Source of the DNA: a virus
Taxonomy: Duplodnaviria > Caudoviricetes
Strand: one strand, 5' to 3'
Virus record (IMG/VR): IMGVR_UViG_3300027759_000109
Span: 1 to 57,002 of that record
Length of the DNA stretch: 57,002 nt
Shown here: positions 2,864-36,861 of the stretch, piece after piece
Layout of the letters: every line of letters starts with the position of its first letter
Position numbering within the stretch: the stretch's first letter is position 1
Translations under genes and position numbers: made by a program
Notes under the pieces: model-generated
What the model saw: the letters and a program-made list of their open reading frames with translations, nothing else
The model's database searches: none
Told to the model about the DNA's origin: nothing

Positions 2864-3598
2864 TTAATTGTTTAAAAGTTTATACGCCTTAATTGTTGCT
2901 ATTCTAAAATTATCAAATTGAAATTGTTTTTCCAAATTAACACAAAATCTATTTGCGTCATTCTTCTTCAAATCTTTTTCCCACTCCGGATATTTCTCAT
3001 TGAAGTATAAATTTAAATCTTTCTTCAACAAATCATTATCAATTGCTAATACTTGTTCTTTTGTTAATATCTTATCTTTAATTTCATATTTAAATATTTC
3101 TATTAACTTTTTATTTCTTTTATCTATTTCTGTTACTATTACTTTCTCTTTATCTTTCTCTTTCTCTTTCTCTTTCTCTTTGTTATGTTCTGTTATAACA
3201 CTGTTATATTCTGTTATAACACTGTTATCGTTTGTTATAACACTACTATTATTTTTATTCCAACGAACCGACATCCCTTTCTTTCCCGCTTCTGATTTTT
3301 TTAATTTAATTTCTTCCCTATATAATAGGTTTTGTTTTACTCTATTACAAGTAATTTTATCATCCTCAACGGAGAAACAAATTTCAACCACATCGTTTAT
3401 TACTTGTTCATCAACTTGTAATTGGAATGCTAGTAATTTAGGTTTGGTCTCAATATAACCATTACCCTCGTGTAACATCTCAACTAAACACCAATAGACA
3501 CCGATACCGGCCATTTGATGTTTCATTCTAACCTCAATTAGTTTTTCATCTTCACGACTATGATTGTCGTGCTGAAAATAATATTTTGGATTTACCAT
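2864..3598 (-). CDS. Putative replication initiator (DUF4373/Lin1244-like N-terminal domain)
   Basis: YFQHD..R.DEKL....G.GVYW.LVEML motif; SEAGKKGM..RW; internal iteron-like repeats and KEKEKE tract. Confidence 0.75.
   Translation of the reverse strand: MVNPKYYFQHDNHSREDEKLIEVRMKHQMAGIGVYWCLVEMLHEGNGYIETKPKLLAFQLQVDEQVINDVVEICFSVEDDKITCNRVKQNLLYREEIKLKKSEAGKKGMSVRWNKNNSSVITNDNSVITEYNSVITEHNKEKEKEKEKDKEKVIVTEIDKRNKKLIEIFKYEIKDKILTKEQVLAIDNDLLKKDLNLYFNEKYPEWEKDLKKNDANRFCVNLEKQFQFDNFRIATIKAYKLLNN
3181..3245. repeat. Iteron-like 21-bp repeats, each with palindrome TGTTATAACA (putative origin)
   Basis: Palindrome at 3191-3200, 3212-3221 and 3233-3242; adjacent pyrimidine-rich tract at 3141-3182. 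Confidence 0.65.
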
Positions 3599-3614
3599 AT
3601 TATTGTTTAATTTA

Positions 3615-3724
3615 ATAAAAAAGGGCCATCAAATACTTACTGCCTCTTACCTCAGTTTTCTTTGACAACCCTTAAAATCTTTAATGTCCTTATAGTGTAA
3701 GAGGGGACTACAATTATAAATATA
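3615..3724 (-). promoter_or_regulatory. Structured 5' leader (promoter, terminator hairpin, pseudoknot) of the initiator gene
   Basis: TATATTTATA at 3715-3724; 13-bp stem 3621-3633/3661-3673 with G-U pairs valid only on minus strand; loop GTAAGAGG complementary to upstream CCTCTTAC. Confidence 0.55.
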
Positions 3725-3783
3725 TGAAAAAAAATCAAAAGAAAAAAATTATAGTAATATTTTTTTATTTCAACTATTCTTCT

Positions 3784-3791
3784 TATATTTG
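3784..3791 (+). promoter_or_regulatory. Bacteroidota housekeeping -7 promoter element TAnnTTTG
   Basis: TATATTTG about 30 nt upstream of ATG 3821; conserved at 35479-35486. Confidence 0.6.
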
Positions 3792-3820
3792 AGTATTGTT
3801 AAACAACAAAACAAATAGAA

Positions 3821-4099
3821 ATGGCAAACAACAAAACTTACGAGAACCTTCAAATGGGATTTGACAGGACTCAACTTTACAAAGAGTACACACAACCTCA
3901 AATCAATCGTTCAACCGCCTTACAGGCTACCATGAACTTTATTAGGGTTAATCAGTACCAATTATCACTTACGGAGACTATTGCGTTATCAGAGAATTTT
4001 GTTAAGTATATTGAAGATGGTAAAACAGACTGGATGAAAAAGACAGAACAATACCTTCAAAATAAATTACAAGATATTGATGGTGTATTAATCGATTAA
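3821..4099 (+). CDS. Hypothetical early protein
   Basis: 92 aa with A-rich leader, promoter and terminator; positional counterpart at 35510..35743. Confidence 0.7.
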   Translation: MANNKTYENLQMGFDRTQLYKEYTQPQINRSTALQATMNFIRVNQYQLSLTETIALSENFVKYIEDGKTDWMKKTEQYLQNKLQDIDGVLID

Positions 4100-4123
4100 A
4101 TATAATACTTTTTTGTTTATACT

Positions 4124-4157
4124 AAGGGGTGAAGTTGGTGTACTTCCCCCTTTTTTT
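4124..4157 (+). terminator. Intrinsic terminator
   Basis: AAGGGGTGAAGT..ACTTCCCCCTT hairpin plus T-run; equivalent at ~35767-35804. Confidence 0.6.
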
Positions 4158-4164
4158 AATACTT

Positions 4165-4488
4165 ATGGTTATGAAAGATTTTAAATTCCTTTCATCTGTT
4201 GATGATGAAGATGCTGTTGAACCGAACCTTGATAGATTCCATGAACTGATTGGTTATCAAAGAAGAATTGAAATAGATATTCTACCAACAGAAACACCCC
4301 AAATTTACACTCAAATCATAAGGGTGGAACTTCCTATCAACCAAATGTCGGAAGACCATTTAAACCACCTTAAAATAAGTAATCAGAGTATCTTACTTAA
4401 TCAAATATCAGATACATTAGATTTCCGTCACGAGATTATTCATCAAGACGAAAACGGATTTACTCTTAGAACAGAATTATATTTTTAA
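4165..4488 (+). CDS. Hypothetical protein (107 aa)
   Basis: Start moved to ATG 4165 by comparison with the highly similar 107-aa ORF 35813..36136. Confidence 0.7.
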   Translation: MVMKDFKFLSSVDDEDAVEPNLDRFHELIGYQRRIEIDILPTETPQIYTQIIRVELPINQMSEDHLNHLKISNQSILLNQISDTLDFRHEIIHQDENGFTLRTELYF

Positions 4489-4527
4489 TATTTGTTTTTA
4501 TAAAAATATTTTGTTATATTTAATATT

Positions 4528-4640
4528 GGAAGGACGGATACAGTTTTCATTCTAAATTTGATATTGCCATTTCATGTAGTCCATCCGTTCTTCCTTTTTA
4601 TATATAGATAAACCCCTGATTTTTTAAGTCAGGGGTTTTT
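4528..4640 (+). ncRNA. Putative small RNA (hairpin with large loop plus terminator)
   Basis: Upstream TATATTTAATA (4515-4525); 12-bp stem 4528-4539/4583-4594 covarying with unit B; terminator 4610-4640. Confidence 0.6.
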
Positions 4641-4666
4641 AATTATATATGGTCAGAGGTGATTTT

Positions 4667-4987
4667 TTATTTTTCGTCCCAAGTACCTTTACACACTGCG
4701 TATGCTTGTCCTTCAACATCGTACTCTGTTCCAATTGCTCCAATACATCTTCCAATATATTCATCTTCAGTTTCCCCACCATCAGGTGTTGGAATAACAA
4801 ACTCTTGTTTTGATTGTTCTTCTTTAACTGGAACACAGTTAGGAACCATGATACCGTCTTTTTCTTTCATTCCAACAGGTTCATATCCTTCCCAACATGG
4901 GTTCTCCATTTCACCTTCCGCCATTTTCTTTGGGTATTTAATCTCAAAGTTGTTTAATTTAAGATTGATGATTTGTTCTAAATTCAT
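4667..4987 (-). CDS. Small phage protein with CWxGY..VPNCVP and PxxxE.E.EYI.RC modules
   Basis: 106 aa; motifs conserved in 36926..37246. Confidence 0.7.
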   Translation of the reverse strand: MNLEQIINLKLNNFEIKYPKKMAEGEMENPCWEGYEPVGMKEKDGIMVPNCVPVKEEQSKQEFVIPTPDGGETEDEYIGRCIGAIGTEYDVEGQAYAVCKGTWDEK

Positions 4988-17541: not shown

Positions 17542-20500
17542 TTATGTTGATGGGTTCATTGTTATATCACCAATATAAAATTCTGATAATCCTTTATATC
17601 TAAAATAATTTGAAACATTCCATGAAGTACCTCCATTTGTTGAATATAATACTGTATAAATAAAATTATTAGGGAAAGAAGGTGCTACCTTTCTTTTTAT
17701 TGCCACATTAATTTTACTACCAGAACCATTTGTTGCTACCACATCAAATCTATCGGTAAAACTATAATTTGTAGAACCGCTTAATATTAAATTAAATGAA
17801 TCAGCATAATCACTTGATTTATATAATTTACTTTCAGCCATCAAATACCAAAATTGACCAGTTTCATTGATTGCCATTTTGAAAAAGTATAAAGAATATA
17901 AATCTTTTATATTTTCTAAAGCCCATGTTGTTCCATAATTAGATGAAACATATAAATAAGAATAATTTAATAATAATCCAATATATTGACCATCACTTGA
18001 AATTGAAAATTCATTTATAATTGAAGTACCTGTCATAGATGGAAAGGTCGTTAAGGTTGTCCAAGTTGAACCTGAATTTGTTGATTTTATAACTTTTGAA
18101 CTTCCCGCTAAATATATTGTACTACCATCTAATGTTAAATTTCCTTTAACATAAGGGTCACTAATACTTGTACCCGTTAAATTATTATAATTAGAACCAT
18201 AATCAGATGAAAATATAAAATTAGTTGAATCATAAGTAATTAATCTATATTGTCCATTTCTTGACATTGATGTTGTGGCAAAATCGGCAGAACTCATACC
18301 ATAAGAACCAACCTGTGTAAATGTTGCTCCACTATCACTTGATTGATATATTCTATCATTAGTACTGGTTGCTGTATTATTAGTAGTTACGATTATGTAT
18401 TTACCTGATGAATCTAATGATAATATATATGGTTCCGTAGTTCCAGTAAATCCATATATATCACTAAAATCTAAACCATTATTAGTGGATTTCATTATAC
18501 TTTGACCTTCTTGTGGTGTATTTGATAATAAAATTATTTCACCTCCAACTAATGGTGTAGGAGTAGGAGTAGGAGTTGGTGTTGATGTTGGTGTTTGAGT
18601 CGGAGTAGGAGTTGGACTTGAAGTAGGCGTTGGAGTTGGAGTAGGTGTAGGAGTTGGAACCAAACATTGACCGTAGTTAATGGATGAGCCAGTCAACACA
18701 CCCCATGTTGATACTGTACTATAAAATTCTGAACAGTTATTAAATAAGTTTGTACCTTGTCTTGTTGAACCACTATTCATCCAAAAGGTTGGCATGTTAT
18801 ATTGGAAAGGTCCGTACTGTTCATTATATATATAATTGTGTAATGTATCATTACTCCAATCTGATCCTGTTGAGTTGTAAGTATCCTCATCAACCTCATA
18901 CATACTATAAGGACAATAGACTTCCTGAGAGAAGTTTATTACAAACTTGAATGAAGATGTAAAACCACTTGTTTGACCCGTTAAAGACCCCACAGAGTGA
19001 TCGTAATATACTGACCAACCATAATTAGTGTCCAGTATATTTGGGTTCGTAAAATCGGTCTTAAATTTGAATGTACAGTTATTTAAACCATCACAATAAT
19101 CATACATGAAGTATCTTGTTGGATATTGATTAACATCCCCATTAAATTGAATTAATTCAACCTTGGTTAATTCTCTATTAGTTAAATTAAATTCAGATAT
19201 TTTGGATACAACAAAATATTGTTCATTAATCTTAATTGCGTCTTCAGGTTTTAGATATTTTACATCAGCATAACTTAAATCAAAGTTACCTGTCAATACC
19301 CTTGTATTAGGGTTATATAAATTAGTAATTCTATTTTGATAGAATGTTGAATATGCGTCGTTTTCTGTATATGTGTTGAATGTTTCTACACCAATTGTAT
19401 CCGTTGGAAACTCTGAATTAAATAAAAGACATAAACTATCGTTATTAATCTTGTTTTGGTCCGCAAGTCCCATAGGCATTGTATGACTAATCACAGGAAT
19501 ACGGTCAAATTGTGTATATGTTGAACCTGATGTATTAGAAACATATGTATTATATGTCTTATAAAAGTTAGTTGCGTCATAGTTTTCACCCACAATGTCT
19601 AAGAATGGATTGAAACAACCCAACCAAAACATCAATTTAGGTTTAGTTTTAACACCTTTATATACCCAACTTACCTTTGAAGTTGTCTGATCTGTCTGTT
19701 CACTACTTGAACCAACGTAATTTATACCTAATGGTAGACTAATATTACCATTATTTGTGGTACCAGAGGTATCCCATTTACGAATTATCTCAGGTCCAAA
19801 TATTGTTTCAATCTTTTTTACATTAGATTTAAATGATGTTGGACCATAAAAATTATTAATACCATATATACGATTGGTATTACCTTTAAATTCTTTATTA
19901 CCTTCATCATTATCTTCAGCGTCTGTAAATGTTATTTGACTTTCAATAAAGTTTAACGCTGGCTCAACGGTAAATCCTTTGTCAAAACTAATCTTATCAG
20001 ACCAGTTATGAACTGTACCACTACCTATGAAAAAATCATATGGTTCAATACGAATCACAGATGGTTCATAAGGGTCAGGAACAAGGACTAAATTGAACTT
20101 CTTGGCCACAGATGATAGTATGTCTATCTGTTTAATATTTTCGTCTATAACAAAATTAAAATCAACAAAATCACCATCCACAAAATTAACACTACTACCA
20201 ACAGCCACAGGAAGATACAATAATGGACCACTTGAAGTTGCTGTACTTAAAGATTCACCAGTAAGAAATGTTGAACCCAAATCAAATGTTAAACCTGATG
20301 TACCATATGGAATTGTTGAATCAAATGTATAGTTTAGATAATTCATTCTGATATTAATATCATTTGAACAAAAACAAGGGATACCTGTCCCAAGTTTACA
20401 AACAATTGCATATTGTTTTTCATTTAAATCTAAAAAGAAAACATCCACACCTTCTAAAGGTAATGTTTGAATTGAATTTACTTTAAATGAGAACTTAGTT

Positions 20501-34637: not shown

Positions 34638-35123
34638 TTACATTAGTTTTTTATACGCGTGAATGTGTGCGATAGTTAATTCATTTACTTCCATATAGTT
34701 CTTTGTATTTTGAATAAACTTTTCCGCAGTGTTAGTTGAGATTAAATCCAATTTCCATTTACGATTATCATTTTCAAAAAACAGGTTCAAATATTCTTCC
34801 AAATATTCTTTACCAAAATTCATTAATACATTTACCTGTGGAACTTTGATGTCGTCCAGTATACTAGAACTTGTATCTGTTGAGGTATTATCAAATAGTT
34901 TTTTATCAACTAGCGAGTTACCATCCCTAAATTCCCTATCTCTTTTATACATATCAATTATTACTCGTTCGTATGTACTGCGAGAATCTTCAGGTATTTC
35001 TAATACTTCCAATATGTATTTTTCCTTTCGTTCTTGTGATAGATAAGAAAATTTGATAGGGCGTATTTCACCTGCTCTGTATTTCCATACGCCATCTGTT
35101 GTTAATTCTGGTCTGTTTGCCAT
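34638..35123 (-). CDS. Hypothetical fusion protein (120-aa-protein domain plus initiator C-terminal domain)
   Basis: N half resembles 2490..2852; C half resembles the end of 2864..3598. Confidence 0.6.
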   Translation of the reverse strand: MANRPELTTDGVWKYRAGEIRPIKFSYLSQERKEKYILEVLEIPEDSRSTYERVIIDMYKRDREFRDGNSLVDKKLFDNTSTDTSSSILDDIKVPQVNVLMNFGKEYLEEYLNLFFENDNRKWKLDLISTNTAEKFIQNTKNYMEVNELTIAHIHAYKKLM

Positions 35124-35151
35124 TTCTATTTTGTTTAAGTTAAAGATATAT

Positions 35152-35250: not shown

Positions 35251-35509
35251 TCCTTTCTTTTATTTGTTTTTTATACTGGTGCTCTATGCTGGGTAAAATG
35301 CTGGATAAAAAATTTCAATAAAAATTTTACACGGTCCAACAGGGGTGATTACCTGAAGTCTAGTAGTTTATTTGAAATGGTTCCTACTCCACCATTAGAA
35401 TGTGTATAACAATAAATACATAATTTTTTCCGAAAAGACAAATTTTCCAATAAATTTTTTTTTATCAATTATTCTTCGTATATTTGATTAAACAATAAAA
35501 CAAACAGAA

Positions 35510-35743
35510 ATGGCAGAACTACAATTTTACAGCACAGATATCAAAATCTTGCAACAATCTCAAAGTAAATTAGTACTTGAGTATTTGAATCTTATGGGTA
35601 TTAAACCTACCGTAGAAGAACTTTGGAGAGTAACTGAAGTATTTGTTCAATGTTGTCTTCATAACCAAGACGATGACCTTAAAAAGAGAATTAAAGCGTT
35701 GGATGAGTGGGTTGTAAAAAAACAATCTAAAAATAAAGTATAA
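35510..35743 (+). CDS. Hypothetical early protein
   Basis: 77 aa; TATATTTG at 35479-35486; positional counterpart of 3821..4099. Confidence 0.7.
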   Translation: MAELQFYSTDIKILQQSQSKLVLEYLNLMGIKPTVEELWRVTEVFVQCCLHNQDDDLKKRIKALDEWVVKKQSKNKV

Positions 35744-35812
35744 TACATTTTTGTTTATATAGTGTTAAGGGGGATTTGGTTGGTGTACCATTTCTCCCTT
35801 TTTTAAATATTT

Positions 35813-36136: not shown

Positions 36137-36175
36137 CATTTGTTTTTTTAAAAATATTTTCATATATTTATAATT

Positions 36176-36296
36176 GTAAGGGCGGATACATTTTTATTCT
36201 AAATCTGATATTGCCATTTCATATAGTACATCCGTCCTTACTTTACTTATATAGATAGTGATTTTACTTAAAACCCTGACTTTGTCGGGGTTTTTT
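36176..36296 (+). ncRNA. Putative small RNA (unit B copy)
   Basis: TATATTTATA 36163-36172; stem 36176-36187/36230-36241; terminator 36270-36296. Confidence 0.6.
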
Positions 36297-36384: not shown

Positions 36385-36861
36385 ATGAAATGGAATAAAG
36401 ATAAGGTTACAGAAATTGCTAAACAATATTCTAATCAAAAAGAATTTAGAAAGGCTAACATTGGGGCGTTTGAATATTCTAAACGTACTGGTTTATTAGA
36501 TGTTTTATTCCCCGATAGAAAGAAGAATGAAACTAATTGGACAGTTGATAAGGTTAAGGATATTGCGTCCAAATATCGTAGACGTAAAGACTTTTGTCAG
36601 ATTGAAAAGTCGGCTGCTGGTATGGCATACCGATTTGGTATTATGAATGAACTTTACCCACACAAAGAGTTTAAGACTCATACTCCAACCGAAGAGGAAA
36701 TGAAAGGACGCACAAAGAGATGTTGTCACTGTAAAGAAGAATTACCTTTAAAGTATTTCCACAAGAATAGAGTATTTTTTGATGGTCTTGCACACAACTG
36801 TAAGAACTGTACCAATAGTTTTAACAGAGAAAGAATGAGATTAGTTAAAAATAAAAAATAA
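36385..36861 (+). CDS. Protein with homing-endonuclease-associated DNA-binding repeats and zinc finger
   Basis: Two W..DKV..IA..Y....F repeats plus CCHC..CKNC; absent from unit A; own hairpin terminator at ~36867-36895. Confidence 0.6.
   Translation: MKWNKDKVTEIAKQYSNQKEFRKANIGAFEYSKRTGLLDVLFPDRKKNETNWTVDKVKDIASKYRRRKDFCQIEKSAAGMAYRFGIMNELYPHKEFKTHTPTEEEMKGRTKRCCHCKEELPLKYFHKNRVFFDGLAHNCKNCTNSFNRERMRLVKNKK

Follow-up and report, generated by a model that had tools for sequence, protein, structure and literature searches.

A candidate small-RNA gene with a covarying stem and a conserved open loop in uncultured Flavobacteriia-type phages

Does the short stretch that lies between a small plus-strand gene and the end of the late operon of an uncultured phage encode a small RNA of its own, and what might such an RNA do? 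The question was raised by a first inspection of the sequence (the original prediction), in which a stem-loop flanked by a promoter motif and a terminator had been noticed in two copies. The DNA analysed, called the window below, is the whole of an IMG/VR virus record (57,002 bases, 32% G+C). It consists of about 1.8 head-to-tail copies, units A and B, of a phage genome of ~32 kb. The two units are not identical, their homologous segments sharing 68-94% identity at offsets of about 31.6-32.8 kb, and two near-complete relatives (G002 and G004, 96% complete) measure 33.1 kb each; we therefore read the record as probably a chimeric or concatemeric assembly of two related, co-occurring phages, not as one 57-kb genome. 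Its genes encode a portal protein, a large terminase, a protease, tail fibres, a DNA methyltransferase, HNH endonucleases and a replication-initiator-like protein, and neither an integrase nor a repressor was found among the 42 window ORFs scanned. The best relative of TerL is that of Flavobacterium phage 11b (46.8% identity over 95% of the query), followed by Cellulophaga phage phi10:1 (45.3%) and then by Polaribacter and Bacteroides phages. These relatives indicate a Flavobacteriia-type (Bacteroidota) phage, and the host, as judged from such protein similarities, is probably a member of the Flavobacteriia.

Nearly all coding sequence of the window is on the minus strand. The exception is a short plus-strand module, divergent from the early genes and convergent with the end of the late operon, in which a gene at 3821-4099 and a gene at 4165-4488 are followed by the small-RNA element (Table 1). 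The genes of this module have no Shine-Dalgarno sequences, which is expected for Bacteroidota and fits a host of this phylum. A perfect Bacteroidota −7 box, TATATTTG, is located at 3784-3791 (+), about 30 nt before ATG 3821. Between the first and the second plus-strand gene, both units contain a G+C-rich hairpin followed by 6-7 T (4124-4152 and 35767-35800, both +; fold z −2.4 and −3.1, respectively); these hairpins are absent from the consensus terminator scan and are possibly an internal terminator or attenuator splitting the module. The 107-aa protein encoded directly upstream of the element had no match in Pfam, PHROG, PDB sequences or Atlas, and its AlphaFold model (mean pLDDT 51.7) was too poor for a fold search.

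Table 1. Coordinates of the small-RNA element, its neighbours and its candidate targets in the window
Feature	Position	Strand	Remarks
Upstream gene	4165..4488	+	107 aa from ATG 4165; listed as 119 aa from GTG 4129
Candidate −33 element TTTG, unit A	4491..4494	+	20 nt upstream of the −7 box
Candidate sigma-A −7 box, unit A	4515..4522	+	TATATTTA; 5 nt before the stem
5' arm of the 12-bp closing stem, unit A	4528..4539	+	GGAAGGACGGAT
Open loop, unit A	4540..4582	+	43 nt, most conserved part; core TTTGATATTGCCATTTCAT at 4557-4575
3' arm of the 12-bp closing stem, unit A	4583..4594	+	ATCCGTTCTTCC
Linker, unit A	4595..4609	+	A/U-rich, single-stranded; shorter in A and L039 than in other members
Intrinsic terminator hairpin and U run (predicted RNA 3' end), unit A	4610..4640	+	4610-4638 in the hairpin/T-run scan
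Promoter, unit B	36139..36170	+	TTTG 36139-36142, 20-nt spacer, TATATTTA 36163-36170
Stem-loop, unit B	36176..36241	+	arms GTAAGGGCGGAT 36176-36187 and ATCCGTCCTTAC 36230-36241; 42-nt loop
Terminator hairpin and U run, unit B	36270..36296	+	36270-36294 in the scan
Candidate target, unit A (inferred, weak)	3818..3827	+	GAAATGGCAA across ATG 3821, first plus-strand early gene
Candidate target, unit B	35507..35516	+	GAAATGGCAG across ATG 35510; 9 Watson-Crick pairs and one G-U
Candidate target, unit B	35117..35126	−	GAAATGGCAA on the start codon of the first minus-strand early gene (34638-35123)

Looking at the structure first, the stems announced for the two units are present in full at the positions of Table 1, and the differences between A and B preserve pairing as had been claimed (pair 2, G-C to U-A; pair 6, G-U to G-C; pair 7, A-U to G-U). 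The plus strand of unit A, with the 12-bp stem and the terminator, folds at −35.7 kcal/mol (z −6.2), and none of 200 shuffled sequences was as stable. Unit B gave a z of −5.0 on the same strand, and the minus strand of unit A folded more weakly (z −3.9).

We then examined covariation in a MAFFT alignment of 11 distinct close sequences. All 132 stem cells were paired; pairs 2, 3 and 4 were doubly changed (G-C/U-A, A-U/G-C and A-U/G-C/U-A, respectively) and pairs 6, 7 and 10 alternated between G-C or A-U and G-U. When stem and terminator were considered together, 98.4% of the positions paired as compared with 91.1% in shuffles, and eight pairs were doubly changed against 2.4 expected. The observed pairing, double changes or covariation score were reached by none of 500 column shuffles, and sliding the partner columns by 1-3 lowered the pairing to 41-59%. 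RNAalifold independently recovered the same two helices, plus invariant 3-bp hairpins. Since the close members are related and modestly diverged, there are fewer independent events than the cell counts suggest, about five compensatory stem events in the close group by our estimate, to which the lineage of L008 is added. This distant member has a wholly different stem, AGACAACGGTGG with CCACCGTTGTTT, which still pairs and encloses the shared loop core. When L008 is taken into account, 11 of the 12 stem pairs are doubly changed and 144 of 144 cells are paired, values that lean towards the structure because the L008 alignment was fitted to the model. The covariation first noticed between two units thus holds in the larger alignment, and indeed grows. 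A covarying secondary structure on the transcribed strand is one of the features by which a small-RNA gene is recognised, and the element has it.

The wobble pairs carry strand information. G-U pairs occupy 13 (1 + 7 + 5) of the 132 stem cells and become A-C mismatches on the minus strand, so the wobbles work on the plus strand only, as first proposed, and the repeat is not a true DNA palindrome. This bears on the possibility that the element is a signal at the DNA level, that is, a single-stranded hairpin or protein-read inverted repeat serving as an origin, priming or recombination site. The 12-bp inverted repeat itself, a replication-initiator-like gene about 1 kb away (2864-3598; Lin1244_N, phrog_2562), the DnaA-box-like TGTGGATAA repeats found after the terminator in some relatives and the insertion of homing endonuclease genes adjoining the element would all suit such a role. 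However, a protein-bound repeat would keep its half-site sequence, and here the arms vary and complementarity alone is kept; the repeat is moreover framed by a promoter motif and by a covarying terminator whose T run is on the same strand, and the DnaA-box-like repeats are absent from unit A, G002, G003 and G004. A DNA-level signal thus seems very improbable to us, and the element is very probably a real structured RNA element of the plus strand.

The loop had been described as conserved over ~43 nt, and the 43 nt of unit A and 42 nt of unit B are indeed nearly identical. Among the eight members that have the same neighbours, its mean pairwise identity is 0.91, as compared with 0.83 for the 5' arm, 0.80 for the 3' arm, 0.82 for the promoter region, 0.73 for linker plus terminator and 0.71 for the adjacent coding sequence. 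By itself the loop is unfolded (−1.5 kcal/mol, z +0.46). Its core is common to the distant member L008, and one variant, 4576 G>A, was found in a metagenome contig. As the loop is both unstructured and the most conserved part, we read the design as a clamp that holds a single-stranded AU-rich 43-mer open.

Could the conservation of the loop instead reflect a tiny gene on the minus strand? A 7-codon ORF, MKWQYQI, runs from ATG 4575 to a stop at 4552; it occurs in every close member (4552-4575 (−) in A, 36199-36222 (−) in B), and unit B differs from unit A by a synonymous change, CAA to CAG. Against this explanation, the ORF is downstream of the late-operon terminator and no promoter motif was seen on the minus strand; its change in L006 is non-synonymous (Y to S) and its length differs in L008; conservation spans all 43 nt, beyond the 24-nt ORF, and the stem wobbles fit the plus strand only. 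We thus judged that this ORF is not a gene; a coding function would be extremely improbable.

We then turned to the sequences on either side of the stem-loop. The motif noticed just upstream of it is TATATTTA, at the same distance from the stem in both units (Table 1). It fits a Bacteroidota sigma-A −7 box well, in sequence and in distance, and is accompanied by a −33 TTTG, which agrees with the promoter that had been proposed; TATATTTA ends in A where the consensus TAnnTTTG ends in G. Eleven of the 12 members have the identical box, separated from the first stem base by 5 nt (4 nt in L008), and TTTG is found 19-20 nt upstream of the box in 10 of 12; L034 has no clean −7 box and L227 has no TTTG. 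According to the available text of a study of Flavobacterium psychrophilum, the sigma-A −7 box with this consensus spans −12 to −5 (PMC9723704), which would place the predicted start at 4527/4528, at the stem base or 1 nt earlier. Both TATATTTA and TTTG are kept in L008 and L049 despite unrelated upstream flanks, and we base the case for an independent gene, as opposed to a simple 3' UTR, mainly on this retention of the motifs where the upstream gene differs.

The 3' UTR explanation had to be weighed with care. Only 39 nt, with no terminator between, separate the stop codon of the 107-aa gene (4486-4488) from the stem, so the RNA could also, or only, be the 3' UTR of this gene, with the stem-loop and terminator ending and stabilising the mRNA and any small RNA resulting from processing. 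A homologue of the gene is found directly upstream in 10 of the 12 testable copies; in L049 and L008 it is replaced by unrelated sequence, and even there the TTTG-N19/20-TATATTTA arrangement is kept at a fixed 4-5 nt from the stem. In addition, the loop is far more conserved than the upstream gene (0.91 against 0.71), and a conserved 43-nt loop would be superfluous for a mere stabiliser. We thus consider the 3' UTR explanation unlikely, although it is compatible with that of an independent gene, and the motifs suggest that the RNA is probably made from its own promoter.

On the 3' side, the intrinsic terminator that had been predicted was found in both units as a hairpin with a T run (Table 1), and that of unit A is also directed towards the end of the late operon, which converges on it. 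The terminator hairpin is present in 11 of 11 aligned members, with 96.7% of the cells pairing and 5 of its 11 pairs doubly changed. A 3' intrinsic terminator, also expected of a small-RNA gene, is therefore in place. The order promoter, structured RNA, terminator and gene is at the same time the classic layout of a cis-acting leader, attenuator- or riboswitch-like, which would control read-through into downstream plus-strand genes such as the HNH gene; an HNH homologue follows on the same strand in B, L003, L005, L006, L009, L011, L049 and L227, and several plus-strand genes follow in G002. In contrast, in A and L039 the next gene is a convergent late gene and no plus-strand gene comes after the terminator, and the element is still fully conserved. 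The HNH gene is a mobile insertion missing from unit A, and no antiterminator pairing was predicted or found to covary, RNAalifold giving the two helices and the invariant small hairpins only. A leader function is in our opinion improbable, and a self-contained small-RNA gene remains the reading that we retain.

The region beyond the terminator is variable. In unit B, an HNH homing-endonuclease gene (36385-36861 (+)) is located downstream of the small-RNA terminator; such a gene comes directly after the terminator in L006, L009, L011, L049 and L227 and ~1.5 kb beyond it in L003 and L005, and it is absent at the corresponding place in unit A and L039. The RNA gene thus borders an insertion hot spot. 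Tandem copies of the 9-mer TGTGGATAA (two, or one of them as a one-mismatch variant) were observed 3' of the terminator in L306 (312-332), G005 (19485-19501), L011 and L227. This 9-mer is identical with the DnaA-box consensus in reverse complement, and the tandem repeats could be an origin or an operator.

How widespread is the element? We counted at least 15 copies, at least 12 of them distinct: the two of the window, 11 IMG/VR phage contigs and at least two metagenome contigs, all from freshwater and sediment metagenomes. The IMG/VR members were found by a protein-guided search and three pattern scans. The first scan gave 10 true members among 47 stretches, the 37 others being chance matches of a 16-mer, and the two further scans gave 35 and 31 stretches, with 10 true members each and no new contig. 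In the metagenome scan, L227 and L234 are true members among the 117 stretches listed, which makes at least two. Of the 20 sequencing runs listed for this stretch, none is of RNA, and the four looked at (X2, X3, X5 and X6) consist of DNA contigs. Contigs from two other studies contain the A-type sequence without change (X2 record 5, 4311-4855; X6 record 27, 4485-4654). A covariance model built from the 11 distinct sequences found exactly one copy in each of five phage records, and one in each unit of the window; close members scored 109-153 bits and L008 scored 30.3 bits (E about 8e-4). One further match, L128:647-742 (−), with 27.3 bits and an E of 0.0035, was left uncounted: this metagenome contig has the 17-base loop core without a mismatch, enclosed by an 8-bp stem, and has neither promoter motif nor terminator. 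The match is probably due to chance, a very distant relative being the less probable reading.

Outside this group the searches were negative. Positions 3600-4700 of the window had no blastn match among 50,697 phage records. The exact-core pattern gave 65 stretches in the GTDB representative genomes (one per prokaryote species), none with the stem; most of these stretches fall within coding sequence, and in Flavobacteriia none of them coincides with a recurrent gene start. The covariance model, run on 151 genomes of the family to which G006 belongs (a Flavobacterium; Flavobacteriaceae), did not detect the RNA: its three weak matches (E 0.0035-0.009) turned out to be terminators that lack the loop core. 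For six more distant phage loci, retrieved via the neighbouring late gene, no match was better than E 0.07, and the neighbour gene of L008 retrieved L008 alone. The family is very probably restricted to a small clade of uncultured Flavobacteriia-type phages.

The original prediction could assign the RNA to no known family. In agreement with this, the whole 57,002-base window gave no Rfam 15 match at the gathering thresholds. In E-value mode, 14 sub-threshold matches were obtained in unit A and 12 in unit B, most of them over the terminator only; the best were Yfr10 (24.8 for a cut-off of 43), ncr1175 (22.7 for 60) and the rimP leader (28.4 for 47). The best one over the whole element is RF02450, ncr1175, a Bacillus sRNA (22.7 bits, E 0.057 in a 351-base search). 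It resembles the phage RNA in having a long stem around a large loop, followed by a linker and a terminator; its loop is, however, wholly unaligned, so the resemblance is one of shape only. From sequence and structure, then, this is very probably a new family of phage small RNAs.

We then studied what the loop could pair with. The loop core UUGCCAUUUC is complementary to GAAAUGGCAA, and the GAAAUGGCA start region is common to promoter-proximal early genes. The 9-mer GAAATGGCA occurs five times in the window for 0.52 expected; two of these occurrences are the loops and the three others fall, in the sense strand, on the start codons of promoter-proximal early genes (3821 (+), 35510 (+) and 35123 (−)). 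In unit A, the GAAATGGCAA site is complementary to loop bases 4564-4573, and the candidate target is the first gene of the RNA's own plus-strand module; in unit B, the first gene of the divergent early operon is a further candidate. G002-G005 have a AAATGGCA start on the same strand, 610-930 nt upstream of the RNA, and in G002, G004 and G005 the candidate target is a later gene of the plus-strand module, with at least one plus-strand ORF upstream. An A-rich leader ending in (G/A)AAATGGCA(A/G)AC was found at 3796-3830 (+), 35485-35520 (+), 35117-35145 (−) and L302:560-590. The proteins behind this shared leader (92, 77 and 96 aa, in different relatives) have no detectable mutual similarity, meaning that the leader and first codons are kept while the genes are exchanged; the leader resembles a regulatory or recombination module that early-gene starts have in common.

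The pairing itself is short, 9-10 bp only, across the start codons in A, B and G002-G005. The duplex energies of loop and leader range from −13 to −18 kcal/mol, as compared with a mean of −11.9 and a 5th percentile of −18.7 for genome-wide 51-nt windows, and no start region stands out from the background in the phage-wide duplex energies. Shuffling the loop gave p values of 0.02-0.07 for a leader site that had been selected with hindsight. Owing to the homology of the leaders, the six genomes do not count as independent cases; in G004 and G005 the G-C pair at −3 is lost without a compensating loop change, and no compensatory change linking loop and leader was found in A, B and G002-G005. That the RNA targets early-gene start regions is thus doubtful, these complementarities being what suggests it, and a host target or a protein partner instead is equally possible.

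Altogether, we favour by a little the view that the locus is a gene complete in itself, specifying a non-coding RNA of 113-124 nt in a small Flavobacteriia-type phage clade, and that this RNA is a loop-pairing antisense regulator. The host sigma-A polymerase would start at the TTTG-N19/20-TATATTTA promoter, at about 4527/4528, on the first stem base or 1 nt before it, and transcription would end at the intrinsic terminator, at about 4640. The 12-bp stem would clamp both ends of the unstructured AU-rich 43-nt loop, and the sequence of the loop, not that of the stem, would be under the strongest selection and so constitute the working part, the RNA pairing with its target through this exposed loop. 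For the pairing step taken alone, the chances are evenly balanced. In a candidate form of the mechanism, the loop core UUGCCAUUUC would cover the start codon in the leader (G/A)AAAUGGCA(A/G) and damp translation of the early genes. A clamp-and-loop RNA that covers early-gene starts (leader (G/A)AAAUGGCA) as an RNA-only early-gene shut-off or superinfection-immunity switch appears a little less probable still than the targeting of these starts as such.

To our knowledge, the small regulatory RNAs described in phages come almost exclusively from enterobacterial systems and from a few Gram-positive ones. Bacteroidota are a major phylum of water, soil and guts, whose signals for starting translation and whose RNA chaperones depart from the textbook cases. 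The family described here is small and unusually clean: its stem covaries, its open loop is invariant, its promoter and terminator motifs are of the host type, and each genome has a single copy. It could be entered in Rfam and would be a tractable model for the presentation of an AU-rich seed without a chaperone. If the early-gene leader were truly the target, phages of this type would possess an RNA-based timing or immunity switch. If the clamp-and-loop reading is correct, this RNA would be the first known riboregulator in phages of Bacteroidota, hosts without Hfq and without Shine-Dalgarno-led initiation; as far as the accessible parts of the literature go, full-text searches for small RNAs in phages of Flavobacterium, Cellulophaga and Bacteroidota found none.

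Among the systems already described, the PeSL cassettes of T4-like phages are present in many copies per genome and flank small early genes. Like them, the phage RNA combines a host-type promoter with a covarying hairpin in an early hyperplastic region and adjoins small genes that are swapped. It differs from them in that its hairpin comes after the promoter and has a large conserved loop, and in that the terminator is separate. A PeSL-type cassette was rejected, since such cassettes are multi-copy and each of the five phage records examined has a single copy.

Lambda OOP and P22 sar are short phage antisense RNAs that control phage development via phage mRNAs, according to the available text of PMC5415839. 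Going by the same partial source, both are cis-antisense and overlap their target gene, whereas the phage RNA overlaps no gene. Two further phage RNAs, the c4 RNA of P1/P7 and the CI RNA of P4, pair with sites in their own operon, which is also what is proposed here, and are immunity factors of temperate phages; in contrast, the window has no integrase or repressor among its scanned ORFs. All four RNAs resemble the phage RNA in size (~70-120 nt) and in combining a stem-loop with a terminator. Their hosts are enterobacterial, and the predicted complementarity of the phage RNA is only 9-10 nt.

The closest precedent for an open, AU-rich pairing region is GibS, one of the trans-acting small RNAs of Bacteroides thetaiotaomicron. 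In the text of the report available to us, its long AU-rich single-stranded seed acts on start-codon regions, and it works without Hfq and ProQ, which Bacteroides does not have (PMC7366714). The two RNAs have no similarity of sequence or model (no Rfam match). GibS is chromosomal and its 5' end is largely unstructured, whereas the phage RNA is phage-borne and its putative seed is a 43-nt loop on a 12-bp stem. Within what that text covers, both RNAs belong to Bacteroidota, are AU-rich with a long conserved single-stranded region, and have a sigma-A type promoter and a terminator, those of the phage RNA being predicted from motifs. With the GibS seed as a precedent (PMC7366714, available text), the anatomy of the phage RNA fits that of an antisense regulator that would pair through its loop.
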